64,000 nt of DNA from a virus (Duplodnaviria > Caudoviricetes), in the IMG/VR virus record IMGVR_UViG_3300027747_002427. One strand, 5' to 3'. The notes beneath the pieces were generated by a model that was not told the DNA's origin, did not search any database, and was given only the letters and a program-made list of their open reading frames with translations. Position 1 is the first letter of the stretch; every line of letters begins with the position of its first letter. Positions 1 through 25,481 of the stretch are shown one piece after another. Position numbers and translations under genes: made by a program.

Positions 1-18
1 TAAATATATTCACAACAT

Positions 19-786
19 ATGTCACTCATTAAATCATACCTCTCCGTATTAAACGAAGACACCAAGAAGACCTCCAATGTAGTCGCTGATAACACTGGAG
101 AACTTGAAGGTTCTGAAAAGGCCAAGAATTTCGTTAAGGATTCCGGACCTGATGCAAATTGCACAGTCGAAACTCCAGTTGAAGGCAAATCACAAGCAGA
201 CGTAACACCAGAGGAGTCAGCTCCTAAGTCAGTTAAGTCTGAATCAACAAATCCTTTCGACGTTCTTTATAATAAGGTTTTAGCCCAAGAAAATTGGGAG
301 CTTGAAGAAGCTGAAGAGGAAGAAGAAGCCGGTGATGATAAGCCATTAGAATTTGCTGGTTTAGGTGAGCCAGAAGGCACCGCAGCTCATGAGCATGGCG
401 AAGAATTAGGTCTCGAAGCAGTATTAGCTCATCTTAAAGGTGCAGTAGAAGCTTTAGAGAAATTAGTTTCCAGTGCAGTAAGCGATGAAGAAGAAGTTAC
501 TGTTGGTGAAGAAGGGTCAGAAGTTGCTGAGCCAGTTGTACCAGAAGCCGTTGAAGCAGAAGTACTTGGTCATGCACTTAAGGATTCAGAAAAACTCTCA
601 GCCGGTTTAACAAAAGGACATGAAGTCAAAGGTGCAGTACCAGTTACTAAGAAAGCTGGTTCAGTTGTAAAGGGTCCTAAGGTAGACGGAGAGCCAGAAG
701 AGCTCAAGGGTAACCCAGAAGAATTACACGATAAGAGCAAGCAAAATGTTGGTGGTGTAACCCCAGGTAAGTCACTTTTCGCATAA
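19..786 (+). CDS. Highly acidic hypothetical protein (possible prohead core/scaffold-like)
   Basis: 255 aa, very E/D-rich; preceded by TAAATA motif and followed by a strong terminator; no recognisable catalytic motif. Confidence 0.4.
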   Translation: MSLIKSYLSVLNEDTKKTSNVVADNTGELEGSEKAKNFVKDSGPDANCTVETPVEGKSQADVTPEESAPKSVKSESTNPFDVLYNKVLAQENWELEEAEEEEEAGDDKPLEFAGLGEPEGTAAHEHGEELGLEAVLAHLKGAVEALEKLVSSAVSDEEEVTVGEEGSEVAEPVVPEAVEAEVLGHALKDSEKLSAGLTKGHEVKGAVPVTKKAGSVVKGPKVDGEPEELKGNPEELHDKSKQNVGGVTPGKSLFA

Positions 787-7134: not shown

Positions 7135-7695
7135 ATGCCTAATCTATTCGAAAACCAAGCAATTAATAATTTCTATGATGTAGCGTTGCAAAGAGATTTT
7201 GCACGTACAAACCTTTTCAGAGTTTTAAACATTAACTCAGGAGCAACCAACGTTAACTTTGGTCCCGAGGATTTGGTTTATGTTACTACTACAACATTAC
7301 CTCAACGTTCCATCAACAACGTTCCAGTTCCTTTCATGGGATTAAATTTCAATGTTCCTGGAACTGTAAAGTATCCAAACAGTGAAGCATGGAATGTAAC
7401 ATTCAGAATGCCACAAGATCTTGGAATAAGACAAAAATTAGAACAATGGTCAAGAGGTACATTCGATGAACAAGGTATTACAGGTAGTTCTGGAGCTTAT
7501 AATTTAGGTGACACTGGTTCTGTAGAATTAGCTCTTATGGGTAAAGGTGGTCAACCAATTGCTAATTATACTCTATACGGTGCTTATTGTGCTACTATCG
7601 GAGAATATGCTTTAGACATTCAAGCTTCCGGAGAAATAGTAACTCAAGCAGCTACTATTGCTTACAGTTACTGGTCTAGCAGTTTAGCTATCTAA
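7135..7695 (+). CDS. gp19: Tail tube protein (T4 gp19-like)
   Basis: Follows the sheath; 186 aa; DFARTNLFRV, VPFMG..FNVPG, W.VTF, LEQW pattern of the gp19 fold. Confidence 0.88.
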   Translation: MPNLFENQAINNFYDVALQRDFARTNLFRVLNINSGATNVNFGPEDLVYVTTTTLPQRSINNVPVPFMGLNFNVPGTVKYPNSEAWNVTFRMPQDLGIRQKLEQWSRGTFDEQGITGSSGAYNLGDTGSVELALMGKGGQPIANYTLYGAYCATIGEYALDIQASGEIVTQAATIAYSYWSSSLAI

Positions 7696-8624: not shown

Positions 8625-9593
8625 ATGTCTTATTATCTACACAATGTAGAAATGCCTTTTTGTGGTAAAAATATTTCTTTTAGAGAAATAAAAAGTATTG
8701 AACAATTAGCTATATCAAAAGCTAATTTAGCAATGCCTTCTGGTAATAATGAACCTGTATTATACAATGATTTTTTAAAAAATATAATTTTTCAATGTGT
8801 AGAAAATCAAGAAGTATTGAAAGAATTAAACATTATTGAATATATTCTTTTTGCTACGAAATTAAGAATGGTTTGTTTTGGTTCTAGTTTAGAACTTCAA
8901 CAAAATTTAGAAGAGTCTGAACAAAAAGACGTTAAAAAAATTAAAATAAATGTAGATTTACAAACATTTATAAAAAATTTATATGAAGCGTCCAAACATA
9001 TAAGTTCAATTTCTATTAATATTCAAAACATAGAAGTATTTTTAAATTGGCCTAATCATAAAGACCAAAATTATTTTTTTAAAATAGATAATTCAGAAAT
9101 AAATTCTACATTGTCTTCTTTATGTCTTTTTATTAAAAAAATAAAAATCATAGATCAAATTATTAATATGTGGGATTTCTCATTAGAAGAAAGGGAGAAT
9201 ATTTTTAATAATCTTCCTCTTTCTATTAGAACAAAAATTCAAAATGAAATAATTAAAGTATTACGCAATCAAACTTCTTCGGATTTATTTGGTATAAAAC
9301 AATTAAATGATTACAAATTTAGTTTTTATAGTACAACATATTTAGAACTTTTAAAATTGTTTTATTCCTTTGATTTAAAAGAAATATACAAAGAATATTA
9401 TGTATTAGCCCAAAGACATATACAACCTTCGTATATAAATGAAATTACTACTATAGAGCGCAAGCTTTATTTGTCTATAATACAAGAAGAAAAAGTGAGT
9501 AGAAGTTCTCCCGGTGATACAGGAGGTGTTACCCCACCAGAAACTACATTAGAAGATTTGGCTCGTGAATTTGGGGATCATTTGCCTAATTAA
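8625..9593 (+). CDS. Baseplate hub assembly protein (gp26/gp51-like)
   Basis: Position after tube genes; ISFRE...EQL..., LNIIEYILFATKLR pattern; C-terminal gp51-like YYVLAQRH...TTIERKLYL. Confidence 0.5.
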   Translation: MSYYLHNVEMPFCGKNISFREIKSIEQLAISKANLAMPSGNNEPVLYNDFLKNIIFQCVENQEVLKELNIIEYILFATKLRMVCFGSSLELQQNLEESEQKDVKKIKINVDLQTFIKNLYEASKHISSISINIQNIEVFLNWPNHKDQNYFFKIDNSEINSTLSSLCLFIKKIKIIDQIINMWDFSLEERENIFNNLPLSIRTKIQNEIIKVLRNQTSSDLFGIKQLNDYKFSFYSTTYLELLKLFYSFDLKEIYKEYYVLAQRHIQPSYINEITTIERKLYLSIIQEEKVSRSSPGDTGGVTPPETTLEDLAREFGDHLPN

Positions 9594-10460: not shown

Positions 10461-12743
10461 ATGCCCCCAGAGGTCTTAGAAAAAATATTAGCTAAATTAG
10501 ACCAAGTAGATCCCATATCTAAGGAAGATCTGCTTAATGCCCTTTTGGGTAAAGAAAATTCTTCTTTAGATATAAGCAGAGAAATAAAAAAAGTTATTTC
10601 TAATATAGATGCTTTAGCTGAATTAGAAATAGAAAGAACCTTTCAAAAAGTTAATGGAAAATTGCCAGGTGATTTAGCAAAAATTTTATCCAAATTAGAT
10701 CAATCTTTAGATTCTCAATCTAAAAAAATTATAGAAGATTTAGTTAATAAAGAAACGCCAAAAACAGAATCTACTTTACCAAAAGAAGAAATCAAGCCAA
10801 GAGAAGTAGAACCAATTTTACCAAGAGAAGAAGTTAGACCAACGGAAATTAGACCACAAGAATTTGAAATAACTTTATCTAAACGTTCTGTTAACGATCT
10901 TAAAAAGTTATTTGGAGGAATGTTAAATGATTCTTTTAAAAATTTAGAAAAGGTTACTGTAGATGAAAACAAAAAATTAAAAGACGGTTTCTCTGGTATA
11001 TCCAAATCAATTAGTGACAGAGGTCCTATGTTTGATTTATTTGGCTTAGGTACATTAGGTAGAATGTTAAAACCAATTGGAATGGGTATATTGGCAGCTG
11101 TTACAAGTCTTTCTCTTTTAATGGGAGCCTTTGGGAAAGATTTAACATCTGTAATAGATAGAATATTTGGTACCAATCTTTCCCTAATTACAAGAGTAGT
11201 TGAAAAACTAACACCTGGAATACCTTCTCAGGCTTATGATTTTCTTACAAAATGGTCATCAAGATTTTTTGCTTCTAGAGCATTTGGTGAGACAACAATA
11301 TCTAAAGCCGGTGAAAATTTAAAAAGAGTACCTGCATTGGGAGGTTTATTAAGTAGCACTATAGGACCTTTATGGAGAGGTACTATGAGTGCTCTTACTG
11401 GAAAAAATTATGTAGCTCCTGAAAGTAAAACCGGTATTAAGGCCATGGAAGGAGCTGCAAAATTAGCAGAAGAACAAAAAGTGGCTAATGCTGCTCAAAA
11501 GGCAATTTATGATAAAGAAAAAGCTGCATTAATGAGAGGTCAAGGGTTTAGACAAGGTCTTACAGAAGCTCAAGCTATTGAAAAATTGGCAGCAGAAGGC
11601 ATAAGTGAAACTGCTCCTACCATTGCAAAAGGAGCTGGGAAGGCTAGTGGATGGTTGGCTAAAATATTAACAAAATTTGGTATTGGTGCATCTGAAAGAC
11701 TTTTGACCAAAATACCATTTGGTGTTGGTGCTTTGTTTGGTTTAGGATTTGGTGCTGAAAGAATAATGAGAGGTGATTATGTAAGTGGTATACTACAAAT
11801 TGCATCAGGAATTGCTTCTATTTTTCCTTTTGCCGGAACAGCTATAAGTTTAGCTTTAGACGTTTTAGATATTGGTCTAGCGGTAGCTGCACCGGAATTT
11901 AAAAAGAGTGCCAATAAATTTTTATGGCAAAATGGTCTTAAATATTTTCCATTATTTAACTTTTTCAGGTATTTAGGATATCATATAGATAGTGGTAGAC
12001 CTTGGTTAGCGGTATTTGATTTTTTAAGATTAGTACCTGGAACCGCAAGTATAGCAAATACATTTGAAACCTTTTTGACATCTGATATAGAAAAACAAAC
12101 AGATGCTGGGAAACCTATTAGTTTTTCAAAACTAGGTCAAATGGTACGCAAAAATCTTTGGAAATCTATATCCCCTTATATACCTGAAATGTGGGGGTTA
12201 AAAAAATGGTTTGCCGAAGCAACGGGATTATCTGATGAGACTATTTCAGAAGGAGAACCATCTACTTTAACAAAACCAGAAGGTTCTCCTTACAAACCTT
12301 TTCCAACCCCTTCAAAAAATACATACCAAAAAAGTCCAAAAGATGAAGTATCTTGGAGTGAATTACATAAAGGAGAACATTTTATATCTGAAGGAAGAGG
12401 TAAAGGAAAATGGGTAAAAGACCTTCAATATAGTTTACAAGAAGGACCAAAAGGATTTTCTGCTGACGAAGAATTTAACAAAGTTAAACTCCCTTCTGCT
12501 TTAGAAGATTCCTCTGATATGAAAAATTATATGACAACTCTTAATACAACTTTATTTAATTTAACTAATAGTTTTAAAGATTTTAGTCAAAATTATAAAG
12601 GATCAGAAGAGTCTCCTTCAATAGTAAGTATAAACAGTTCTACCCAGAACAATGGAGGTGGTTTAAATTATTTAATGGGTGGAAGGGATCCTACATTTGA
12701 ATATAGAACTTTGGTTGGTATTGCTTTAAATCGAGGAGATTAA
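10461..12743 (+). CDS. Tape-measure/baseplate hub protein (gp29-like)
   Basis: 760 aa, helical, Gly/Ala-rich hydrophobic segments (KIPFGVGALFGLGFGAERIMRGDYVSGILQIASG); lies between gp26-like and gp48-like genes. Confidence 0.6.
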   Translation: MPPEVLEKILAKLDQVDPISKEDLLNALLGKENSSLDISREIKKVISNIDALAELEIERTFQKVNGKLPGDLAKILSKLDQSLDSQSKKIIEDLVNKETPKTESTLPKEEIKPREVEPILPREEVRPTEIRPQEFEITLSKRSVNDLKKLFGGMLNDSFKNLEKVTVDENKKLKDGFSGISKSISDRGPMFDLFGLGTLGRMLKPIGMGILAAVTSLSLLMGAFGKDLTSVIDRIFGTNLSLITRVVEKLTPGIPSQAYDFLTKWSSRFFASRAFGETTISKAGENLKRVPALGGLLSSTIGPLWRGTMSALTGKNYVAPESKTGIKAMEGAAKLAEEQKVANAAQKAIYDKEKAALMRGQGFRQGLTEAQAIEKLAAEGISETAPTIAKGAGKASGWLAKILTKFGIGASERLLTKIPFGVGALFGLGFGAERIMRGDYVSGILQIASGIASIFPFAGTAISLALDVLDIGLAVAAPEFKKSANKFLWQNGLKYFPLFNFFRYLGYHIDSGRPWLAVFDFLRLVPGTASIANTFETFLTSDIEKQTDAGKPISFSKLGQMVRKNLWKSISPYIPEMWGLKKWFAEATGLSDETISEGEPSTLTKPEGSPYKPFPTPSKNTYQKSPKDEVSWSELHKGEHFISEGRGKGKWVKDLQYSLQEGPKGFSADEEFNKVKLPSALEDSSDMKNYMTTLNTTLFNLTNSFKDFSQNYKGSEESPSIVSINSSTQNNGGGLNYLMGGRDPTFEYRTLVGIALNRGD

Positions 12744-14543: not shown

Positions 14544-16427
14544 ATGCCAAGAAAATCAAAAGACGAAGAAGACGAAGAAGATGAGGTAGATCTTAATTCT
14601 ATACCTTTAGAGGAGATAGAAAACGCTGATATATTAGCTGACGGCAAATATTTTCAAGGTAATGAAAATATTTTAAGACAAAATGCTACTTTCAAATGGA
14701 CTGAAGAGATGCAATCGGAGCTTAAGCTCTGTATTAAAAGTATCTTACATTTTGCAGAACATCATTTTTATATATCCACCCTTGATGATGGAAAGAAAAG
14801 AATTGAACTTCATAAATTCCAGAAAAGATTATTAAAAGCTTTCAAAGCTAATAGATTTAATATCGTATTAGCCTCGCGTCAGGTGGGTAAAACCACTTGT
14901 ATTACAATTTATGCTCTTTGGTTAGTTTGTTTTCAATCTGATAAAAGAGTTACTATCATTGCTAACAAAGAATCAACTGCAAAAGAAATTTTTAGCAGAA
15001 TTCGTATGGCCTTTGAACAATTACCAATTTATCTCAAGCCTAGTATGAAGTCTTGGAGAAAAGATGGGTTCTTGTTATCTAACGATTCAGCTATTACCAT
15101 TAGTACAACCTCAGCAGCAGGTCCTCGTGGTAGTACAAGTAATCTTCTTATTATTGATGAGATGGCTCACTGTCCAACAGAACTCATGAAAGAACTTTGG
15201 AAATCTGCTATTCCTATTATATCTTCTTCTAAGAAATCTCAAATTGTTGCTATTAGTACACCCAATGGAACTGATAATAAATTTTATGAACTTTATGAAG
15301 AATCCCAAAAGAAAGGAAGTGAATGGCACTTAGAAAGAGTTGATTGGTGGGATGTTCCTGAAAGAGACGAAGAATGGAAAAGAGGAGCTATAGCGGCTTT
15401 GGGTTCGGAAGAAGACTTTGAACAAGAATATGGCAATGCTTTTATTCTCCCGGGTAAGAGTGTTGTAGATACAACCTATCTAGATGAGTTAAAAGCTCAA
15501 GCTAAAGAACCAGTTCTTATTAATGATAATGGTTTTTATAAAATATTTGAATTACCTAAACCAGGTAATCTTTATATCATAGGTGTCGACGTAGGAGAGG
15601 GTATAGGAAGATCAAATACAGTAGCTCAGATTTTGGATGTTACTAATTTACAAGATATTAGACAGGTAGCTATATATGCTACCAATACTATGAGTCCTTT
15701 TCATTTTGGAACAAAGTTGATGAGTGTTTTAACCGATTGGGGAAGACCTCCTATTCTTATTGAAAATAATAACAATGGTCAACAAGTATTAGATGTTCTA
15801 CATCAAACCCATCAATATGAAAATATTGTATCTTATCAATTTGAAGGTAATAGCAAACATTATGATACCGGAAAAAGACTAGGAGTTCATAATCATACTA
15901 ATACAAGATATAAAGGTATTATTAATTTTAGATATTGGTCTAATGGATTAAAAGTGGTAAAATTAAATGATTTAGACACTATATTAGAACTTTATAATTT
16001 TGTTCGTTTGCCTAATTTTACATTTAGTAAAAGAAGTGATAAAGATTTAGATGATAGAGTATTTGGTTTAATTTGGGGGCTCTTTATTTTAGATCCTTCT
16101 TTGGTTTCTAAATATTTTTTATTATCGGAATTGGATGATCAGGGAAGACCTAGTAGAATACAAGCTCTTGTAGATAATTCAGATCTTATATCAAAAAGTC
16201 CTTTACTCATAGGTGGTGGATATACTTTAGAAAAAAAGAGTGCTCCTGTATTGCCTAGTTATGTGCCGGTTAAAGGGCAAGAAGGCAATGCAGTGCTAGC
16301 TGATGAAGCTAAAAATTTATGGATGTGGCTACATACAAATGGTGGTACCGAAAAAGATACGTTCAAAACTCCTCTTCAAGAGGATAAGTCTTCTATAGAA
16401 GAATATAGACCTATTATATTATTTTAA
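14544..16427 (+). CDS. gp17: Terminase large subunit (T4 gp17-like)
   Basis: Walker A SRQVGKTT, Walker B LLIIDEMAH, STPNG, FEQEY, RNase H-fold IGVDVGEG and DDRVFGL. Confidence 0.96.
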   Translation: MPRKSKDEEDEEDEVDLNSIPLEEIENADILADGKYFQGNENILRQNATFKWTEEMQSELKLCIKSILHFAEHHFYISTLDDGKKRIELHKFQKRLLKAFKANRFNIVLASRQVGKTTCITIYALWLVCFQSDKRVTIIANKESTAKEIFSRIRMAFEQLPIYLKPSMKSWRKDGFLLSNDSAITISTTSAAGPRGSTSNLLIIDEMAHCPTELMKELWKSAIPIISSSKKSQIVAISTPNGTDNKFYELYEESQKKGSEWHLERVDWWDVPERDEEWKRGAIAALGSEEDFEQEYGNAFILPGKSVVDTTYLDELKAQAKEPVLINDNGFYKIFELPKPGNLYIIGVDVGEGIGRSNTVAQILDVTNLQDIRQVAIYATNTMSPFHFGTKLMSVLTDWGRPPILIENNNNGQQVLDVLHQTHQYENIVSYQFEGNSKHYDTGKRLGVHNHTNTRYKGIINFRYWSNGLKVVKLNDLDTILELYNFVRLPNFTFSKRSDKDLDDRVFGLIWGLFILDPSLVSKYFLLSELDDQGRPSRIQALVDNSDLISKSPLLIGGGYTLEKKSAPVLPSYVPVKGQEGNAVLADEAKNLWMWLHTNGGTEKDTFKTPLQEDKSSIEEYRPIILF

Positions 16428-16430
16428 TTT

Positions 16431-17030
16431 ATGAATCAAGCTACTTTAAATAGATCACGCAGCGACAAGTTCCTTTTGGTACTTGACTTACCTATTGCTT
16501 TAAAAAGTTCTCAGGATACTGTAATACAAGACAAATATTCAGCCGATCAAATACAGTTTACCATTTACGGATCCCCAGTTCCTAAAATTTCAATTCCAGA
16601 AATAAATTTACCATTTGGAGGTCAAGTCTTGAAAGTTTCTAGCATGTCTCGTCCAGCATATCCATCTTTAGATGTAAAATTTCTAGTAGGTAATGGATAT
16701 CAAAATTATTGGATTTTATGGAAATGGTTGAATTTGTTTAATGATTCTCAAAATAGCACTTCAGATTTAAATATGCAGTCTAGTTTTGTAGGAGAAGATA
16801 TTAGATTAACAAATTCTTTGAGACGTTATATTTCTGATTTTACTCTTTTTGCTTTGGATGAATTTGACAATAGGATTATTTCTTTCAAATATACTAATGC
16901 ATTTGTTACTTCTCTAGGTCAAATAAATTATTCTTATCAAGACCCAGCGGAAATAACTTGTGATGTTTCTTTTGCTTATAATCAATTAGAAGTGAAACTT
17001 TTAAAAGATATTAATATATCTTCTTGCTAA
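16431..17030 (+). CDS. Tail completion/tube terminator (gp3-like, tube fold)
   Basis: KFLLVLD, QFTIYGSPVPKISIP, LDVKFLV, YWILWKW, FTNAFVTSLG-like, CDVSFAY pattern. Confidence 0.6.
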   Translation: MNQATLNRSRSDKFLLVLDLPIALKSSQDTVIQDKYSADQIQFTIYGSPVPKISIPEINLPFGGQVLKVSSMSRPAYPSLDVKFLVGNGYQNYWILWKWLNLFNDSQNSTSDLNMQSSFVGEDIRLTNSLRRYISDFTLFALDEFDNRIISFKYTNAFVTSLGQINYSYQDPAEITCDVSFAYNQLEVKLLKDINISSC

Positions 17031-17033
17031 CGT

Positions 17034-18701
17034 ATGGCTAACATTACAATTGCATCTGTAAATCCAGAATCTGGTTCTATTCATATTGCCGGTGCTGAAG
17101 CATCAACAACTCCAGGCAATAATAATGATTTAAAATATGTTTACCAGATAAGAGATCAATTTTATCATTTAGAAACTTGGATGTATAATCAATTTGATGA
17201 TTATAAACCCTTTCAAGTATCTTTCTTTTCTATAGAAGCATTAGCTTTAGAAGAAACATTATTTAATTGGCCTACTAATGGTTGGATGGTTTTAAAAAAT
17301 GATTTTGAATTATTTGAAAGAGGTTCTTTACCAGTCGATAATATAGCTGGTATACCAGCACCTTATATTTTTAGAAGTGATGGTCGTAATAGAATTAATA
17401 TTAAAATATATCCGATACCAAATCCAGCTGGTATAGTAGGAGAATCTATTGATAATCAAGAATTGCCTAGAGATTTGTGGGAAATGAATTTTGATTTTGT
17501 TATATATGATATAGAAGATTTACCAACAGATAATAATCAAAATAAATTACGTAAATTGTATTTTCATGATGAAAGGCTACAAATATTAAAAGAAAGAAAT
17601 ATACAATGGTCTACAGCTAAATACGGACCAAATCAAGGACAATTAGGTACTACAGATAAAGCTAGGGCAATGCCTGTAAGTGATGCTATGAAATCTATAA
17701 TACAAACAGCTGGTTCTAGTAAAAGTGATCCTTTATTTTCTGATTTAAATGTGGGTTATAATGAAAGTCTAGGTTCTATAAGTGATCCTAAAATTCCTTT
17801 AGCTAGTTTCGGAGATTGGGATGAAGGACATGCTCCAAATGGAGAACCAGTCAATATACTTTATACTTCCCCAGCAGGGTCAAATGCTTTAGAAGATTTA
17901 AGTTATTTGTATCAAAATGCAGTTAGTTCTGATGGTACTCCATTAATTTTAGATTTTGGTAGAACTACAGATGATAAAAAATTTCATTTAAGACCTCTTT
18001 CATATTTTTTCAAAAATGCCGAAAAAAATCAAATAGAAAAATTAATATTGGTAGATGGAATATCGCCAGATAAAGCTCTCCCTTATATTCCTAGAGCTCC
18101 TAATATGGCTGGAACCGCTATTCAAAATTTTACATCTGGCATAGCTTCTCTAATTAAAAGTTATAATTTTGCACCTATGGTCGCAACAGATGACGCAAAA
18201 ATAACTAATAAACCTCTTCATAATTTTAATTTTGCTAATTCTGAATTTAATATATATTACGAAGATAACACAGCTGAAAAAATTTCTAAGAATATGGAGG
18301 ATATGGCAAAACAAGGTTTATATGGTCTTAATAATGGAGGTCAATTGTTAATGAATATAAACAAAACCAAGCAAACTGGTTTAATGAATACACCTTATTT
18401 TGAATCTCAGACATTTTTCCCAAAAAATAAACCTGCTATGTTGATGATGAAACAAGCATTATTTTTGAATCAAGCTTTATATTTTCAGGTTCCTGGATTA
18501 ACTTTTAGAACTCCAGGTAAATTTATATTTGTTGACAGAACTTCTTCTAGTGATAACAATCCTTTTGATGATAGATTTTTAGGTCAATGGATGATAATTA
18601 AAGTTGTTCATTTATTTACAAAAGACAATTATGTCAATGATGTAGTTGCTACAAAAATAGATACTTTCAAAAAAATGTGGCCAATTTTAGATAAAAAATA
18701 A
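17034..18701 (+). CDS. Baseplate hub protein (gp27/VgrG-N-like)
   Basis: C-terminal VPGLTFRTPGKFIFV...LGQWMIIKVVHLF typical of gp27/gpD hubs; upstream of gp5-like genes. Confidence 0.6.
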   Translation: MANITIASVNPESGSIHIAGAEASTTPGNNNDLKYVYQIRDQFYHLETWMYNQFDDYKPFQVSFFSIEALALEETLFNWPTNGWMVLKNDFELFERGSLPVDNIAGIPAPYIFRSDGRNRINIKIYPIPNPAGIVGESIDNQELPRDLWEMNFDFVIYDIEDLPTDNNQNKLRKLYFHDERLQILKERNIQWSTAKYGPNQGQLGTTDKARAMPVSDAMKSIIQTAGSSKSDPLFSDLNVGYNESLGSISDPKIPLASFGDWDEGHAPNGEPVNILYTSPAGSNALEDLSYLYQNAVSSDGTPLILDFGRTTDDKKFHLRPLSYFFKNAEKNQIEKLILVDGISPDKALPYIPRAPNMAGTAIQNFTSGIASLIKSYNFAPMVATDDAKITNKPLHNFNFANSEFNIYYEDNTAEKISKNMEDMAKQGLYGLNNGGQLLMNINKTKQTGLMNTPYFESQTFFPKNKPAMLMMKQALFLNQALYFQVPGLTFRTPGKFIFVDRTSSSDNNPFDDRFLGQWMIIKVVHLFTKDNYVNDVVATKIDTFKKMWPILDKK

Positions 18702-18702
18702 T

Positions 18703-19014
18703 ATGAATAGAGATGAACTCAAAGCTAAATTACAAGAAGCTCACATTCAACGCTTGGCTTCTTCTAATAAAACCCAATATCCTTCTGCTATGCAAATGGC
18801 TAGGAATTTAGGTAGTAGTGTTATTAATAATGCAATGAGTGTTGCTGCTGGAAATAGTCTAAGAGTAGATAATAGTGTTGCTGAAACTAGATTAAATGTT
18901 TGTAAAGGTTGTGAATTTTTTAATCAACTACAAGAAAGATGTGGTAAGTGTGGATGTAATATGGCTGTTAAGACTTACTTGAGAGCGGAGAAATGTCCGG
19001 TAGGAAAGTGGTAA
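18703..19014 (+). CDS. Small Cys-rich protein (DUF6171-like)
   Basis: RLNVCKGCEFF...CGKCGCNMAVKTYLRAEKCPVGKW. Confidence 0.6.
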   Translation: MNRDELKAKLQEAHIQRLASSNKTQYPSAMQMARNLGSSVINNAMSVAAGNSLRVDNSVAETRLNVCKGCEFFNQLQERCGKCGCNMAVKTYLRAEKCPVGKW

Positions 19015-19597
19015 CATAAAAGTCTGCTAAATTTAAAGCTATTTTCTTAATTTCTTTTTTATAAACCTTTAAGTCTTTATATTCTAGTGTAAGAATTATT
19101 TGTTCTGCTAAAGATCTAATAATTTTATTATTAGTAAATTCAAAATTATTGGCTGGTTCTAATCCTTCTCTTTCTATATAAAAAAGAGTTCCTTTAACTT
19201 CATCCTTTAACCACCAAATTTCGTCTTTGGGGTATTCTATGTATCTTATATCTGTTATTATAGATATATTATTCTTTGCAAAGGTTTTATCTGCGCTTAA
19301 TTTCTCTATAAAATAGCGTCCTTTCGTAGTGTTCCTCATTAGTCTGCCATATTCAACAAACATAGGCCTGAGCAAAGTTTTTTCTTTATCACTATTAGTA
19401 TAAACTGATAAATTTGTTTTATCTGATATTAATTTATCTAAATCTTTTCTTATACAATCACCTGCTATAGAAAATCTCTTAGCTTCTAAATTATATTTTT
19501 CTTTAAATGCTTCTATTAAAGCAACACACAAAGAATCTTTGCCTGCTCTTGCGTACCCCGACAAACCAATCGGAGGGTAAAATAAGCTATTTGCCAT
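18968..19597 (-). CDS. Deoxynucleoside monophosphate kinase (T4 gp1-like)
   Basis: IGLSGYARAGKDS P-loop, IITDIRY..E; inverted gene within the baseplate region, as T4 gene 1 lies near genes 3/53/5. Confidence 0.8.
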   Translation of the reverse strand: MANSLFYPPIGLSGYARAGKDSLCVALIEAFKEKYNLEAKRFSIAGDCIRKDLDKLISDKTNLSVYTNSDKEKTLLRPMFVEYGRLMRNTTKGRYFIEKLSADKTFAKNNISIITDIRYIEYPKDEIWWLKDEVKGTLFYIEREGLEPANNFEFTNNKIIRSLAEQIILTLEYKDLKVYKKEIKKIALNLADFYVTTFLPDISPLSSKS

Positions 19598-19621: not shown

Positions 19622-21064
19622 ATGGCCACTAGTCAATCTACTATTGTAAACAAAGACTCTTTAAAACAATTGGAAGCCTCTTCTGGAATAAAAGCTTCTG
19701 GTACTGGACTTACTTTAGATACCTTTAAAGCTAATGGAGACGGTAATCAGTATGCTGCTAGATTAGATATGCTAGTGAATGGTAAAAAATCTATAGGTCA
19801 TGTTTGGGCTATAGATCAAGGTGATCCATATCCTATAACTGGAGGTACAAGAGGAACATATGTTAATTTTGTAAAATGGTGTAAAGAAAATCATTTATTA
19901 GAAGCATTACAGAAACAAACTCCAGCAGGAACTGCAGGAGAATTAGTTACTGGCGGAATGTTAGGAATTGATACTTTATTGACTTCACAAATGTTCCAAA
20001 ATCCTATTACAGGACCAGCACAAAATGCTCCTTGTTTGGGTGCAGATCTTTTAAATAGTATACACCCTCACATGGTAGAAGGTATAGAAAATTTTTGTAA
20101 TATTATTCGCACAAGATCATATCTATCTTTACCACCAGGGGCTTTTGGAGGATTGAGTTCTTTTCTTTATAAAGTACAGGGAGCTATAAGTGGTTTTATT
20201 CAAGCATTATATAATGTTTATCACGGGGTTTTATTAATGATGCAAAGATTTGCTAATATGATTAACGGACTTTTGCAATCTTTAAATCAATTTATCTATG
20301 ATTTTATTAGTTACTTTATACCATTAGATTTAATTTGTGCTATATTAGGTGCTTTCCAAAGTTTGTTAGATGACGTAGCATTTTTTGCACAACTTTTCGG
20401 AGGAGGTGATGGAATTTTTAATGCAATCAATTCAATTCAAACCGTTATAAATTTTGCTGCTCAAGGTTTAAATTATGCATACAATCCAATATCTTTAGCT
20501 GGTTTGATTCCGGGTGTTAATGATGTATTTAAAGCTTTAAATCAATTATCATCAGATCCAGAAGCTTTCATGGGTCAATTAATTTCTCATTTTGGATTTT
20601 CTGCTGGGGCTGGAAACAAAGCTGTACAAATTGCAAATGCTATTCTTTTACATTATGGGTTAGAAAGTCAATTAGGTCCATTAGGTTCTGTATTGTTGTC
20701 TCAAGGTGTTGCTGGAAATAGCAGTCAATGGTATAGATCTGGTGATACTGGAACCGGTAATTTTGGTAATCTTGCTTATGGTAATGTTATACCAAACCCA
20801 GGTTATATAGATCCAGATAATCCTTTTAGTTTCTTGGACGTAAATTCTAATCCATATTTTAATAAAGCTAAAGCAAACATAGAAGATTTTAAAACTAATG
20901 CGCGCGCTATACCAGCTGCAGCTGGTGCAGCGGCAGCTGAAGTGGGAGCTATACCGGGTAATATTGCAACTTCTGTTGGTAATTTCTTTAATCCTAATGC
21001 AGCTCCTCAACAAGTTGCACCAGTGACTCCAACACCAGTGGTTGCAAATCCAAATAATCCTTAA
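19622..21064 (+). CDS. Hypothetical virion-associated protein
   Basis: 480 aa, Gly/Ala-rich amphipathic/hydrophobic helices; directly upstream of gp5-like genes. Confidence 0.5.
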   Translation: MATSQSTIVNKDSLKQLEASSGIKASGTGLTLDTFKANGDGNQYAARLDMLVNGKKSIGHVWAIDQGDPYPITGGTRGTYVNFVKWCKENHLLEALQKQTPAGTAGELVTGGMLGIDTLLTSQMFQNPITGPAQNAPCLGADLLNSIHPHMVEGIENFCNIIRTRSYLSLPPGAFGGLSSFLYKVQGAISGFIQALYNVYHGVLLMMQRFANMINGLLQSLNQFIYDFISYFIPLDLICAILGAFQSLLDDVAFFAQLFGGGDGIFNAINSIQTVINFAAQGLNYAYNPISLAGLIPGVNDVFKALNQLSSDPEAFMGQLISHFGFSAGAGNKAVQIANAILLHYGLESQLGPLGSVLLSQGVAGNSSQWYRSGDTGTGNFGNLAYGNVIPNPGYIDPDNPFSFLDVNSNPYFNKAKANIEDFKTNARAIPAAAGAAAAEVGAIPGNIATSVGNFFNPNAAPQQVAPVTPTPVVANPNNP

Positions 21065-21076
21065 TAATAAAATAAA

Positions 21077-22177
21077 ATGGAGCCAATCAAGGGTATACAT
21101 TTAGGATTAGTAGTTAGTAGTTCTCCGGATCCAGAAGGAAGAAATAGAGTTCAAGTATGGGTACCACATTTATCCAATACACTTTATGGACCTTTAAATC
21201 AAAAATTAAAAGATGTAAAATTTAAAGGCCCAGAAGATTTAAATACTATAGACAAAGACATTTTAATTACTTTACAAACCACATTGCCTTGGGCAGAATA
21301 TGGAGCACCTTTATTTGGAGGTTCTAGCGGAGCTTTTAACACTGCTACCGGACAAACAGCAGTCAATAGTGGTTCTACTTTTCAAGGCAGTGGTAATGCT
21401 GCTCCTTTTTTGCCTACAGCTTCTGCAAATATGAAGACAGATGGTACTAAACCAGCTACGCCTTCTGCTGGAGTTATTACAGCATCAAGAACCCAACCCA
21501 CTCTCACCCAAAGAGGTATTAGTTTTGCCTCTGGAATTATAAATTTGGCTTTACCAGATGGTACAACGAAACAATATCCTTTTAATAATGGCGGTGGTGG
21601 AGCGGGTGCAATACCTGCTGGGAATTACACAATTTCAAATCCTCAAATAAGAAATACACCAGGGATGGTTGTAGATGGAGTAGGTTATTCTTTTAATTTA
21701 AGTGATATTTATGATCCAGCAGCCGGTCGTAATAGAACTGAACTTCGTATACATCCAGATGGAGGGGCTACAGGAACCGCTGGATGTATTGGTATTGTAG
21801 GTGATGGTAATACTCAATCTCAATTTTATAAAGATTTAAATTCCGTTTTAGCAGCTAATGGTGGTGTTTATAATTTAAACATAGTAAATGATCTTCCGGG
21901 AGATGGAACTGGTAAAATTAATGATCCGGATCCTACAAAACCAAGTGTTTCTACTGGTAGTACATCTGGAGCAAAAGGTGTAGTATATCCAGATAGATCT
22001 GCTGCTGTAGGTTGTGTTCCAAGTAATGTAGGTACACCGGGATCTCCTGTAGGAACTTTTTCTACTCCTAATGGTGGAACAAAAGTTTGGGTGTTCTTCA
22101 TGGGCGGCGATGCTCAGAGACCAGTTTATTTTGCTCAGTCCCCTAATCCAGGAGATGTAAATGCTTTACGCGGTTAA
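21077..22177 (+). CDS. gp5/VgrG OB-fold protein with inserted L,D-transpeptidase/Tlde1-like domain
   Basis: DPEGRNRVQVW...LPWAE and PNGGTKVWVFFMGGDAQRPVYF are the two halves of the Gp5 OB fold; the insert carries GAIPAGNY and RIHPDGGATGTAGCIG. Confidence 0.75.
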   Translation: MEPIKGIHLGLVVSSSPDPEGRNRVQVWVPHLSNTLYGPLNQKLKDVKFKGPEDLNTIDKDILITLQTTLPWAEYGAPLFGGSSGAFNTATGQTAVNSGSTFQGSGNAAPFLPTASANMKTDGTKPATPSAGVITASRTQPTLTQRGISFASGIINLALPDGTTKQYPFNNGGGGAGAIPAGNYTISNPQIRNTPGMVVDGVGYSFNLSDIYDPAAGRNRTELRIHPDGGATGTAGCIGIVGDGNTQSQFYKDLNSVLAANGGVYNLNIVNDLPGDGTGKINDPDPTKPSVSTGSTSGAKGVVYPDRSAAVGCVPSNVGTPGSPVGTFSTPNGGTKVWVFFMGGDAQRPVYFAQSPNPGDVNALRG

Positions 22178-22179
22178 AA

Positions 22180-23430
22180 ATGGAACCTGATTACGACATA
22201 CATTTAGGTTTAGTAGTTAGTAGTTCTCCAGATCCTGAAGGAAGAAATAGAGTTCAAGTTTGGATTCCTTATTTGTCTAACACGCTTTATGGACCTTTAA
22301 ATCAAAAATTAAAAGACGTGCATTTTAAAGGACCAGAAGATTTAAATAATATAGATAAAGATATTTTAACTATATTACAAACCACATTACCTTGGGCAGA
22401 ATGCGCCGCTCCTTTGTTCGGTGGTTCTAGTGGAGCTTTTAACACTGCTACCGGGCAAACAGCAGTCAATAGTGGTTCAACAGTTCAAGGTAGTGGTAAT
22501 GCTGTTCCGTCTTTACCTACTGCAACACCAAATATGAATGTCACCGGGATCAAACCAGATAATATTAATGGTTCTTACGGAAATGCTAGTAGTCTTGGTC
22601 TTCCTTCTGGTTGGAATAAAGAATCTGCTTATGATAAACAAGGTAGACTTGCTACAAAAGGTAATACATTACAATTTATATCAGCTCAAGAGTTGCACAA
22701 TATAAATTTAAATGCAGCACAAAATGGAGGTCTAGCAGGTTTAGCTGCTCCGAAAGATTCTAGTTATTTTACACCAGGTACAACAACAACTGCTGCTCAA
22801 TGGGCAAATTATATGGATGCTATAGCTTTGCATGAAAACGTCGGTCTTGGAGGAGGTAAGGGAGGAGGTACATACTCTTCAGTAAATGGTTATATACCAA
22901 TTAATGTAACATATAATGAAGGTTATAAAAACAATGGACCGATACATTGGTCTGAAGGTATATATCAAATGACTGTAGGGGAAAATGGATTGAATAGTGA
23001 TAACATTTATGATCCAAATGCTCAGGCAGCAGCTTTTACACAAAGAGCACGAGATTTTGCAGTTATAGCAGGTGCTAAAAAAGGAGATTGGTCAATAGGT
23101 GATAGTGGTATTGCTGCTTATGGATGGAACAGGGCTGCAAATGATGTAGCAGCAGCAAATGGTAATAATTCTAATGATTTATTAAATAATGTTTCTTTGC
23201 CTCAAGGTGCACAAAGTAATGGAACCCGACCAATAACTTATACGGATAAATCAGCAGCAGTAGGTTGTCAACCCAGCAATGTAGGTGCACCTGGTGCTCC
23301 TGTAGGAACCTTTTCTATCCCAAATGGTGGAACAAAAGTTTGGGTATTCTTTATGGGTGGAGATATACAAAAGCCGGTTTATTTTGCTCAAGCCCCAAAT
23401 CCCGGGGATATAAATGCCCTACGAGGTTAA
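22180..23430 (+). CDS. gp5/VgrG OB-fold paralog with inserted lysozyme/lytic-transglycosylase-like domain
   Basis: Near-identical OB-fold halves to 21077..22177; insert has MDAIALHE (candidate catalytic Glu), EGIYQMT, NIYDPNAQ. Confidence 0.72.
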   Translation: MEPDYDIHLGLVVSSSPDPEGRNRVQVWIPYLSNTLYGPLNQKLKDVHFKGPEDLNNIDKDILTILQTTLPWAECAAPLFGGSSGAFNTATGQTAVNSGSTVQGSGNAVPSLPTATPNMNVTGIKPDNINGSYGNASSLGLPSGWNKESAYDKQGRLATKGNTLQFISAQELHNINLNAAQNGGLAGLAAPKDSSYFTPGTTTTAAQWANYMDAIALHENVGLGGGKGGGTYSSVNGYIPINVTYNEGYKNNGPIHWSEGIYQMTVGENGLNSDNIYDPNAQAAAFTQRARDFAVIAGAKKGDWSIGDSGIAAYGWNRAANDVAAANGNNSNDLLNNVSLPQGAQSNGTRPITYTDKSAAVGCQPSNVGAPGAPVGTFSIPNGGTKVWVFFMGGDIQKPVYFAQAPNPGDINALRG

Positions 23431-23444
23431 TTATAATTAAATAT

Positions 23445-25481
23445 ATGCCAAAACCAATAGATTATACAAAAAATAAAGAATCTCAAGTACACCATACATC
23501 TGGAAGATATAGTGGTATACAATTTGTAGATAATAAACAGGTAGATCCTAATGGTTCTCAAAGTCCTAAAGATAAATCATTTTCTTATTGGGGTAATTCT
23601 TGGAACACTTTTACTAAAATATTTACAGGCAATATTTTTTCTAATGCTCCCGGAAATATTAGTTTAAATGCCGGGGAAGAAGTGCATATTACTGCTCATA
23701 ATAAACAAGAAACTACTTCTGGTGGTAGTGCAGTTTATAATAAAGGCGAAACAGTTCATAATCATGGAGAGATGACTGATGAAGATAAAGCCAAGATGAA
23801 AGAATATCAAGGTTATCTAGATCAGATAACTCAAAAAGCACAAGATGCAATAAAAAATACTGCTGCAGAAAAAGTAACTTGTCCTAATTGTGCTCAAATG
23901 CATCTAATAGATGATAAAAGCGATCAATGGGTTATTATTTTAGATTATATAAGAAGAATAGTAGATAACTTTCCTTATCTTACTTTTCCTTTTGCGGTTT
24001 TAAGAACTTTAATTATGAAAGTTTATGTTCCTCTTTTAGGACAAAAAACTAATTTAGGCCTTAATGGAGGGGAAGGGTGTGGACCAGGATGTAAAAGTGG
24101 AGAAAAGGATGGGATGTCTTTAAAAATGCAGGCCGGTGAAAAAGCTGTAAAAGATGAAATGGAAAAATTATCTGATAAGATGAACAAATTAACAATAGCT
24201 ATGAAAAATTCTTCAGCTACTGCTAAAGTTCATAAAGATAGTGAAATACATATATATGGTGATCCTACAGCTGGTCCTCCTAAAACAAAACCTTATGTGA
24301 CCCCAGGACCACATCATTCTTTGCCTATGAATTTGAGAGTATCAGATTCTTGGAGAAATAAATTAAGAGTATCAACAGAAGGTAATTGTAAAGTAGTAGT
24401 TTATCAACCACCATTACATTCTCCATTTGGTAATCTAATGATGCAAGTTCAAAATAATTTAAAAATTACTACAGGTAATGCTGGCATGGATCTTATGTCT
24501 ACCGGGGAAATAGCTGTAAAGGGTGGATCTGTGCACGTCAATGCATCAGAAGGAGAACTTTCTATTACATCTAAAAACCTTACAACTATAGGTGGTGGTA
24601 ATGTTTTAATAGCTGCAGATAATAAATCTGGTGATACAGGAGTATGTATAGATGCTAAACACACATATGTGAGAGGTGCTTTTAATGTTAATGGTGATGC
24701 AGCTGTGCTCGGTGCTCTTACATTAGACGGGCCTCTATCAGTTCCTTATATTAATTGTCCTACTATGGCAGCTCCTACTACTTTAAACGGATCTTCTAAA
24801 TACGCAAATCATCATGCAAATTGGGAAGAATTTGGGGCAGCTTTAAATGCTCTCAATTTTGAAACAGATTTAATAACAAAATTTTTATTCCAACCTAGTT
24901 TACTATTAACTGGATCTGGATTAACTGAAATTATTATGGAAGCTTATAATTTAATTATGATGGCTATATTTATAGAAATACTTCCTACTGGAATATTCAT
25001 AGGAGCCGGAGTAGGGCTTGGTGCTTGTGCTGTTGCTGGATTAGTTTGGAATTTTACTCATAACCATACCCAGGCTCCTCAAGATCATACTCATGAAGTT
25101 GCCGTTCCTAAGGGAGGATCTTGGAAAACATTAGCTGGTGCCGGTCAACAAAGAGCTGCTGGTAATCCAGCCCCAACAGTTGCTCCTACAAGTGGTACGT
25201 GGCCTTCTCCGGGACCTAGAGCACTGGGTGGTGGTTGTGGTGGTGGTGGATTGTTTAAAAAGGCTCGCAATCAAAATTATGGTATTGATAGTGAAGACGC
25301 TTTCAATGGTGGTAACTATGTCAATACAACTGTTGTGAGAAATCCAGACGGGTCTATATACCCTCCACCAGATTTAACCTATCGTGTTGTTAATGACACG
25401 GGACCAGCTCCAAAGATTGATCCGGTTACTGGTAAGGTTATTATTCCAGATACTACACCTGTAAATGTAGCTTGTGATTAA
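23445..25481 (+). CDS. Baseplate central spike, gp5 C-terminal beta-helix-like
   Basis: Real start MPKPIDY at 23445 (the ORF-track extension overlaps the previous gene); beta-strand repeats (NNLKITTGNAG, GEIAVKGGSVHVNA, VRGAFNVNGDAAVLGALTLDG) and HNH/HTH motifs. Confidence 0.65.
   Translation: MPKPIDYTKNKESQVHHTSGRYSGIQFVDNKQVDPNGSQSPKDKSFSYWGNSWNTFTKIFTGNIFSNAPGNISLNAGEEVHITAHNKQETTSGGSAVYNKGETVHNHGEMTDEDKAKMKEYQGYLDQITQKAQDAIKNTAAEKVTCPNCAQMHLIDDKSDQWVIILDYIRRIVDNFPYLTFPFAVLRTLIMKVYVPLLGQKTNLGLNGGEGCGPGCKSGEKDGMSLKMQAGEKAVKDEMEKLSDKMNKLTIAMKNSSATAKVHKDSEIHIYGDPTAGPPKTKPYVTPGPHHSLPMNLRVSDSWRNKLRVSTEGNCKVVVYQPPLHSPFGNLMMQVQNNLKITTGNAGMDLMSTGEIAVKGGSVHVNASEGELSITSKNLTTIGGGNVLIAADNKSGDTGVCIDAKHTYVRGAFNVNGDAAVLGALTLDGPLSVPYINCPTMAAPTTLNGSSKYANHHANWEEFGAALNALNFETDLITKFLFQPSLLLTGSGLTEIIMEAYNLIMMAIFIEILPTGIFIGAGVGLGACAVAGLVWNFTHNHTQAPQDHTHEVAVPKGGSWKTLAGAGQQRAAGNPAPTVAPTSGTWPSPGPRALGGGCGGGGLFKKARNQNYGIDSEDAFNGGNYVNTTVVRNPDGSIYPPPDLTYRVVNDTGPAPKIDPVTGKVIIPDTTPVNVACD

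Follow-up and report, generated by a model that had tools for sequence, protein, structure and literature searches.

In the spikes of phage P1 (structure 9vzk_q), phage P2 (gpV), phage Mu (gp45) and R2 pyocin, the oligonucleotide/oligosaccharide-binding (OB) fold is contiguous, carries no enzyme and shares its chain with the needle. The 'evolved' VgrG proteins of type VI secretion, which have an OB domain of Pfam family PF04717, use the spike as a scaffold for exchangeable modules; their effectors are attached at the C-terminal end of the needle, and Tlde1 is a separate cargo effector. In the known modular virion-associated hydrolases, the modules lie end to end in one chain. Shuffling of peptidase and glycosidase modules in phage tail proteins is represented by HydH5 (CHAP plus LYZ2; PMC3150257). 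The baseplate centre of the Anabaena myophage A-1(L) also has more than one wall-degrading activity, its hub protein gp15 being both glycosidase and peptidase (PMC10966104); there the enzymes lie in one chain in the gp27-like hub, and the spike protein gp25 is a plain OB fold. In T4 gp5, a single gene product, the OB fold, a lysozyme and a β-helix follow one another in one chain, which is split by proteolysis into gp5* and gp5C (PMC3004832). The DNA analysed here is a stretch of 64,000 nucleotides (the window; IMG/VR record IMGVR_UViG_3300027747_002427) from a contig of about 203 kb and about 30% G+C belonging to an uncultivated myovirus, and DNA of the window occurs in freshwater metagenomes. 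It contains two tandem paralogous genes, OB1 and OB2, each of which is predicted to encode a spike-base protein with a different cell-wall enzyme (a cassette) nested within a loop of its OB fold. The features of the two genes are as follows.

21077-22177, plus strand: OB1 (open reading frame), spike-base protein of 366 amino acids, slot 1 paralog (PF04717, 25.9 bits)
21077-21331, plus strand: OB1, N half of the OB fold, residues 1-85, strands 1-3 and a helical excursion at 38-69 (PF04717 positions 3-26; pLDDT 61-86)
21332-21454, plus strand: OB1, N linker, residues 86-126, low complexity, ending at the ...KP junction (predicted local distance difference test score, pLDDT, <50)
21455-21961, plus strand: cassette 1, residues 127-295, Tlde1/YkuD-like L,D-peptidase-fold domain
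21752-21754 and 21785-21787, plus strand: His226 and Cys237 of OB1, candidate catalytic residues
21962-22021, plus strand: OB1, C linker, residues 296-315, beginning at the SG.KGVVY.DR junction
22022-22141, plus strand: OB1, C half of the OB fold, residues 316-355, strands 4-5 (PF04717 positions 41-70 at residues 322-351)
22180-23430, plus strand: OB2 (open reading frame), spike-base protein of 416 amino acids, slot 2 paralog (PF04717, 29.2 bits)
22180-22557, plus strand: OB2, N half of the OB fold and N linker, residues 1-126 (PF04717 positions 3-25)
22558-23208, plus strand: cassette 2, residues 127-343, lysozyme-like/lytic-transglycosylase-like (core about 22666-23127)
22834-22836, plus strand: Glu219 of OB2 (ALHEN), candidate catalytic residue, invariant in nine homologs
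23209-23430, plus strand: OB2, C linker, C half of the OB fold and 11-residue tail, residues 344-416 (PF04717 positions 41-70 at residues 372-401)

This layout resembles that of T4 gp5, with which the original prediction had correctly compared it (PMC3004832), in combining an OB adaptor, a wall enzyme on long linkers and a β-helical needle that end up as two pieces. Unlike the T4 lysozyme, which follows a complete OB fold, the enzymes here are nested between strands 3 and 4; moreover, the needle gene is separate, there are two paralogs, neither enzyme is a GH24 lysozyme and the Pfam match is to PF04717, in contrast to Gp5_OB, the T4 type. The contiguous, enzyme-free spikes of P1, P2, Mu and R2 pyocin are among the best structural matches to the rebuilt fold but differ from OB1 and OB2 in both respects and in the fused needle. 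Compared with the evolved VgrGs, the module is nested in an OB loop and the protein is that of a phage, and in contrast to the HydH5 type, each module is nested within a structural fold, always at one fixed site, and the modules are distributed over two paralogous genes. The spike OB fold, tail lysins and module shuffling are thus each already known. Their nested combination was not found described: a literature search, in which subscription papers were thinly covered so that absence is not proven, returned no account of a spike OB fold with an enzyme nested in it, of split phage OB folds or of Tlde1 in phage tails.

The existence of two tandem genes with common N- and C-terminal ends and unrelated middles was confirmed by the open reading frames and by BLASTP. 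Residues 1-126 of OB1 and OB2 were 84% identical (E 6e-71) and the last 65-70 or so residues were near-identical, and the middles could not be aligned; the motifs cited earlier (PDPEGRNRVQVW, LPWAE, KVWVFFMGGD and PVYF) were all found in their expected places. At the DNA level, two direct repeats were present, one of 300 nucleotides with 86% identity (21074-21373 and 22177-22476) and one of 192 nucleotides with 80% identity (21986-22177 and 23239-23430). The conserved scaffold was larger than the OB fold itself, as it includes an N linker of about 40 residues, conserved in OB1 as far as KP among close relatives, and a C linker of about 20. As these linkers belong to the scaffold, the exchanged cassette extends over approximately residues 127-295 of OB1 and 127-343 of OB2.

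Profile matches and predicted structures show the two flanks as together forming one OB fold of the gp5/gpV/VgrG type. Both proteins scored above the gathering cutoff of PF04717 (Phage_base_V), set at 23.8 bits, and the family was matched by all 46 relatives scanned. The above-threshold matches covered only profile positions 41-70 (of 75), all within the C flank; the N flank alone corresponded to positions 1-32 in eight of eight family members tested, each time below threshold. The enzyme insert falls between profile positions 41 and about 32 and, in the fold, between strand 3 (LPWAE...) and strand 4 (KVWVFF). A profile of the whole family compared with the PDB gave a single match, the AlgoCIS spike chain 7aef_q (E 0.8), in which the N flank aligned to the N-terminal OB strand of that chain. 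AlphaFold2 models of both proteins were built with family alignments, and were confident only in the flanks (pLDDT 60-86) and in part of cassette 2; cassette 1 was not usefully modelled, a poor mixed alignment (A2) being the probable cause. In the C half of OB1, the model placed strands at 336-341 and 349-354. Superposition with VIA-align, which does not depend on Foldseek, fitted residues 3..356 of OB1 and 3..406 of OB2 to the contiguous 80-residue OB domain of P1 9vzk_q (Z 8.9 and 9.1, respectively; root-mean-square deviation, rmsd, 2.3-2.4 over 78-79 residues; 31-34% identity). For both models, the top 8-11 structural matches were all central-spike proteins, the next being those of PVC, AFP, the Streptomyces contractile injection system, AlgoCIS, VgrG1, VgrS and A-1(L), followed by those of a T4-like Klebsiella phage, R2 pyocin, Mu and P2 (gpV). 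Matches to PVC, AFP, VgrG1, VgrS, AlgoCIS and A-1(L) had Z values of 6.7-8.1 and aligned ranges that covered both flanks, and across the spike matches 78-90 residues were aligned with an rmsd of 2.3-3.8. A Foldseek search of the PDB gave nothing significant for either model, as is to be expected of a discontinuous domain with an aligner that works sequentially; the best weak rows for OB2 were nevertheless spike proteins. That the flanks rebuild one fold was therefore borne out by the split PF04717 match and the superpositions, and the AlphaFold modelling of each monomer, which had been named as a test able to refute this, did reassemble them.

A search of related contigs for the same flanks around other inserts, as originally proposed, returned many unrelated inserts. 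Searches with both proteins yielded 70 proteins having both flanks, with inserts of 125-373 residues in 22 BLAST-distinct classes, a count in which the largest class merges at least two unrelated types. An exhaustive profile search extended the family to 886 clusters at 50% identity (E<=1e-3; 309 at E<=1e-30), every one of them metagenomic, and across the family the OB loop holds inserts of 125 to more than 470 residues. Most of the 98 distinct inserts scanned had no Pfam match, and those that did accounted for 11 Pfam families at this one site, nearly all of them known cell-wall hydrolases (Phage_lysozyme, Glucosaminidase, Amidase_2, CHAP, NlpC/P60, Peptidase_M23, SLT, Phage_lysozyme2, DUF2272, HH_signal and Tlde1). 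Phage_lysozyme (GH24) was found at the site in three other family members and was not matched by OB1 or OB2 in the Pfam scan. Single-linkage BLAST clustering of 203 inserts produced one giant class, probably through linker similarity, and was not used.

Comparison with close relatives supported the proposal that the OB loop is a site of cassette exchange, since near-identical flanks bracket different enzymes in genomes that are colinear elsewhere. The closest case was P0002, a protein 99% identical to OB1 over residues 1-101 and 95% identical over the last 70, with an unrelated cassette in between that is of CHAP type (59% identical to a CHAP-positive one). The contig encoding it (L081) was colinear with the window at 90%, 87% and 79% DNA identity, and both of its cassettes were unalignable with those of the window. 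In a second relative (L001), cassette 1 alone was replaced, with breakpoints at 21455 and 21965 that are the conserved ...KP and SG.KGVVY.DR junctions; DNA colinearity resumed at 21965-21968 in both relatives. An independent sample (X4) contained contigs in which other cassettes lead into the same C flank, and one of these cassettes reads as the P0002 type; such alleles therefore coexist in one community. The flanks had also been expected to recombine, and in a tree of flanks the two paralogs of L001 paired with each other instead of with their positional orthologs (87/94 support), even as its slot 2 cassette was the same as that of the window (86% identical). This is the pattern expected from gene conversion between paralog flanks, and points to such conversion in L001. 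A shufflon or invertase mechanism was rejected, as no noteworthy inverted repeats or site-specific recombination sites were seen at the cassette borders.

Cassette 1 was about 50% identical to C-terminal domains of bacterial peptidoglycan-binding-domain proteins, many from Myxococcota. Its match to Tlde1_dom (E 3e-5, 22.2-24.8 bits) lay under the Pfam cutoff of 30.1 bits, and it is therefore called Tlde1/YkuD-like and not a member. Among 50 homologous domains, 34 matched Tlde1_dom, 28 matched DUF5675 and seven matched YkuD at E<=0.01, and the motif LRIHPDG(x6)GC.GI was invariant in all 50 aligned, so that the catalytic His...Gly-Cys pattern is present in cassette 1 as His226 and Cys237. Enzymes of the Tlde1 type are known as the payload of a contractile injection machine, and Tlde1a acts as an LD-carboxypeptidase and LD-transpeptidase on tetrapeptide stems (PMC9638812); by analogy, cassette 1 is expected to act on peptide stems. 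It was the sole example of its kind among the 203 inserts examined. A profile of cassette 1 matched only designed β-trefoils in the PDB, through the short PDG motif, and these matches were rejected as spurious. The nearest relatives of the cassette (P0042-P0120) are the C-terminal domains of bacterial PG_binding_1/PG_binding_3 proteins, again many of them from Myxococcota; they form a tight family with a mean column identity of 63% that keeps the His/Cys motif, fall below the Pfam thresholds for Tlde1, DUF5675 and YkuD, and make up a branch of the L,D-transpeptidase-fold superfamily that apparently has no name.

For cassette 2, three independent leads agreed on a predicted fold that is lytic-transglycosylase-like or lysozyme-like. 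With VIA-align, OB2 residues 163-316 (pLDDT 55-77) matched the phi6 P5 lysin (Z 6.4) and phiKZ gp144 (Z 6.1), and the same segment gave Z values of about 4.4-5.3 against Slt, MltC, MltE, Slt70 and MltF. A structure search of the ESM Atlas returned SLT in eight of ten rows, with template modelling (TM) scores of 0.45-0.48, and a profile of nine cassette 2 homologs matched the SLT-domain protein 6ta9 in the PDB (E 0.08), in an alignment that pairs the E-S and S.GL.Q catalytic motifs with the cassette. These matches were mutually consistent, each being under the level that the tools deem safe. The cassette also shows the pattern of such enzymes, in which the first helix ends with the catalytic Glu and an S.G(L/I).Q motif comes after it: besides the candidate Glu219, the cassette has an S-x-G-I-Y-Q motif at OB2 257-263, and the Glu, Ser and Gly were invariant in the nine homologs. 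By analogy, cassette 2 is expected to act on glycan strands.

Both OB1 and OB2 end 11 residues past the OB fold, so that in neither is the OB domain continuous with a β-helical needle, as it is in fused relatives; the needle is instead encoded by the next gene (23445-25481). The product of that gene aligned to the C-terminal tails of fused OB-spike relatives (28% identity, E 1e-51), and the gp5 of the window is therefore split genetically at the boundary that T4 makes by proteolysis. A homolog of this spike gene lay downstream of almost every split OB gene in relatives, the sole exception being near a contig end. In 79 viral contigs, the following architectures were counted.

OB fold, non-enzymatic loop of 68-92 residues, fused needle: 25 distinct proteins
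OB fold, insert of 270-470 residues, fused needle: 9
OB fold, insert, short tail, with a separate needle gene next: 19
OB fold, insert, tail of 150-190 residues: 9

The enzyme-free fused relatives (L029, L030, L032 and about 25 others) carry at the insertion site a conserved loop of 68-92 residues with the motifs SGRYN...TSDSN...Y.Y.PS.YSN, and the site was therefore already an excursion before enzyme insertion. In two relatives (L021, 6001-7133; L045, 6001-7027), the gene is broken within the insert into an N-flank and a C-flank open reading frame in different frames, which may reflect a frameshift, an error in the sequence or a genuine split.

The tandem pair was found in four lineages, namely the window, L081, L082/L083 and L001, from four samples and three data sources (assemblies IMG 3300010885 for L001, ENA ERZ28593671 for L081, and JGI 3300009154 and 3300027741 for L082/L083). 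In L084 and L085, two close relatives, just one such gene occupies the syntenic position. In the tree of flanks, the slot 1 genes of the window, L081 and L082 formed one clade (100/99) and their slot 2 genes another (99/98), with slot-specific signatures (MEPIKGIH/AEYGAP/QSPNPGD in slot 1 and MEP[DN]YDIH/AECAAP/QAPNPGD in slot 2). The cassettes held by the two slots were as follows.

Window: slot 1 Tlde1-like, slot 2 SLT-like
L081: slot 1 CHAP-type, slot 2 P0007
L082: slot 1 CHAP-type, slot 2 P0005
L001: slot 1 class 8, slot 2 SLT-like

The fold of the P0005 cassette is similar to that of the phi6 P5 lysin (TM 0.67-0.72 in the Atlas), the P0007 cassette gave weak lysozyme-like leads only and class 8 a faint NlpC/P60 signal only. 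A division into a peptidase slot 1 and a glycosidase slot 2 is suggested by these assignments and not shown, because the annotations of P0007 and class 8 are weak.

The preferred reading, to which a probability of about 0.76 is given, is that the source is a freshwater myovirus of the T4 superfamily, about 200 kb in size, in which both genes would encode the gp5*-like base of the central tail spike. Into the loop between strands 3 and 4 of each OB fold, as model and profile show it, a peptidoglycan-degrading enzyme domain has been inserted together with a flexible linker ahead of it and a second linker behind it. By analogy with T4 gp5-gp27, and as the fused relatives suggest, a ring of three OB domains, in mixed or pure trimers, would sit with the hub trimer on one side and the needle trimer on the other, and the enzymes would hang peripherally on tethers of about 40 and about 20 residues. 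Contraction of the sheath would drive the spike across the outer membrane, and the enzymes would then open the wall locally, that of gene 1 cutting peptide stems and that of gene 2 glycan strands. The scaffold-coding flanks would serve as homology arms for recombination, with one fixed breakpoint following ...KP and the other preceding SG.KGVVY.DR, and the tandem duplication would allow two activities in one phage. Within this reading, the nested fold (by prediction and profile), the variety of cassettes, their replacement between colinear genomes, the fission/fusion relation to the spike and the existence of the tandem pair are taken as demonstrated, and the place in the virion, the trimer stoichiometry and the enzyme activities as deduced. 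A more far-reaching version, in which the loop is a standard docking site with fixed junctions through which a large uncultivated phage lineage re-arms its spike by recombination, the site has been duplicated in the sub-lineage of the window into two slots specialised for peptide-stem enzymes (slot 1) and glycan-strand enzymes (slot 2), and heterotrimers deliver two bond specificities per injection, is put forward only tentatively and is regarded as doubtful.

Several points weigh against the preferred reading. The AlphaFold2 models were poor overall, with a mean pLDDT of 53.6 for OB1 and 52.0 for OB2, and the assignment of the presumed hub protein (17034-18701) is weak. Neither cassette was secured by Pfam, as cassette 1 stayed below the gathering score for Tlde1_dom (24.8 against 30.1 bits) and a scan of OB2 gave no match within the insert, to SLT or its kin included, and the slot 1 peptidase/slot 2 glycosidase split has weak annotations behind several cassettes. 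None of 50,697 cultured-phage records was matched by tblastn when OB1, OB2 or either of two fused relatives served as the query, nor did the nearest virus record (G001) match the family. The longest exact DNA matches between the paralog flanks were only 32 and 23 nucleotides, and the two slots of one genome therefore probably exchange cassettes less often than the same slot does among co-infecting relatives. Prediction of an OB1-OB2 complex, also counted here, scored 0.02, which speaks neither for nor against binding. The low model confidence, together with the sub-threshold Pfam matches of the N flank and the negative Foldseek result, would also suit an arrangement in which the C flank lies outside the OB fold as a separate adaptor docked on the spike, and in which each enzyme merely comes after a shortened OB domain in the manner of T4 gp5. 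This was judged very improbable, as the C flank itself supplies PF04717 positions 41-70 above the gathering score, the N flank supplies positions 1-32 in all eight members tested, the two can be superposed together on solved OB domains that each form one unbroken stretch of about 80 residues, and the enzyme-free relatives retain both halves around their 68-92-residue loop.

It was also considered whether the tandem pair might have arisen in assembly, through the end-to-end joining of two strain variants that differ in the cassette of one single-copy gene. Short-read unitigs are indeed interrupted at the flank repeats (Logan contigs end at 21184-21213 and 22287-22314), the samples concerned also contain variants with other cassettes, and the close relatives L084 and L085 are single-copy. 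However, the tandem recurs in separate assemblies from other samples and studies, and each slot has its own conserved signature and its own clade; with four separately assembled lineages, mis-assembly is therefore unlikely to a degree that makes it hardly credible. In addition, a unitig from sample X1 (21184-22314) spans cassette 1, the stop codon and the slot-2-specific start of gene 2, although X1 may be the source sample of the window itself, in which case this unitig is not independent support. Mis-assembly, which the original prediction had named as a refuting condition, was thus not supported, the four lineages and the unitig across the junction of the two genes both speaking against it. 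A further alternative takes both genes as real but only one paralog as structural, the other being redundant, decaying or moved to another role, such as a soluble lysis protein or an ejected one. A trimeric spike has only three OB positions and a single copy evidently suffices in relatives, but both open reading frames are intact and tightly packed in an operon-like run (with gaps of 2 nucleotides between OB1 and OB2 and 14 between OB2 and the spike gene), both slots are conserved in the four lineages, and OB1 and OB2 keep all invariant OB residues of the 70-member family as well as their candidate catalytic residues. In the flanks, codons with purely synonymous differences are also more numerous than codons with residue-changing ones (31 to 20 and 22 to 13), which fits purifying selection on both paralogs, and the loss of a structural role by one of them was considered unlikely.

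On the preferred reading, that of two spike-base proteins with nested enzymes, the family adds a nested topology to what is known, since a structural OB barrel appears to tolerate large inserts in one loop, and population-level evidence that, in phages occurring together, one module takes the place of another between homology arms that are nearly identical. It also adds a natural fission series that leads from OB fold and needle, through OB fold, enzyme and needle, to OB fold and enzyme with a separate needle gene, the last step being a duplication that puts two different wall activities in one phage. Cassette 1 is perhaps the first L,D-peptidase domain of Tlde1 type to be seen on a presumed phage virion protein, and would link the effector repertoires of type VI secretion systems with phage entry enzymes. 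The family represents a large pool of uncharacterised peptidoglycan hydrolases and offers a ready scaffold, with a junction rule, for engineering spike-borne enzymes. It further leads to the prediction that host wall chemistry, besides receptors, drives spike diversification.

The surrounding genes of the window are as follows.

4703-7114: tail sheath
7135-7695: tail tube
8625-9593: T4-baseplate-like protein
14544-16427: large terminase
16431-17030: second tube-like protein (phrog_45)
17034-18701, plus strand: candidate gp27-like hub protein of 555 amino acids (weak match to phrog_350 'tail protein', E 1e-5; role deduced)
between the 17034-18701 gene and the kinase-like gene: DUF6171 protein
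18968-19597, minus strand: deoxynucleoside monophosphate (dNMP)-kinase-like gene (phrog_139)
19622-21064, plus strand: tape-measure-like protein, directly upstream of OB1 (phrog_305, E 6e-6)
23445-25481, plus strand: β-helical spike protein of 678 amino acids without an OB fold of its own (weak DUF2345 match)

The large terminase was about 30% identical to those of T4-like phages. The synteny of both the hub candidate and the tape-measure-like gene was kept in L001, L082, L084 and L085, and the hub candidate is the presumed docking partner of the OB ring. The terminase gene stands amid tail genes, between the sheath/tube/baseplate block and the tube-like paralog (14544-17030), which is unusual for a T4-like module. 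The dNMP-kinase-like gene sits on the opposite strand inside the hub-spike block and overlaps the end of the DUF6171 gene, and an opposite-strand open reading frame of the same size occupies its place in the same four relatives. Within the tail module, a protein of 760 amino acids (10461-12743, plus strand) had no Pfam match but matched PHROG peptidase/endolysin families over residues 385-468 or so (E 2.5e-8 to 8e-4), and may, on this sequence similarity, provide a third wall-degrading activity in the tail.

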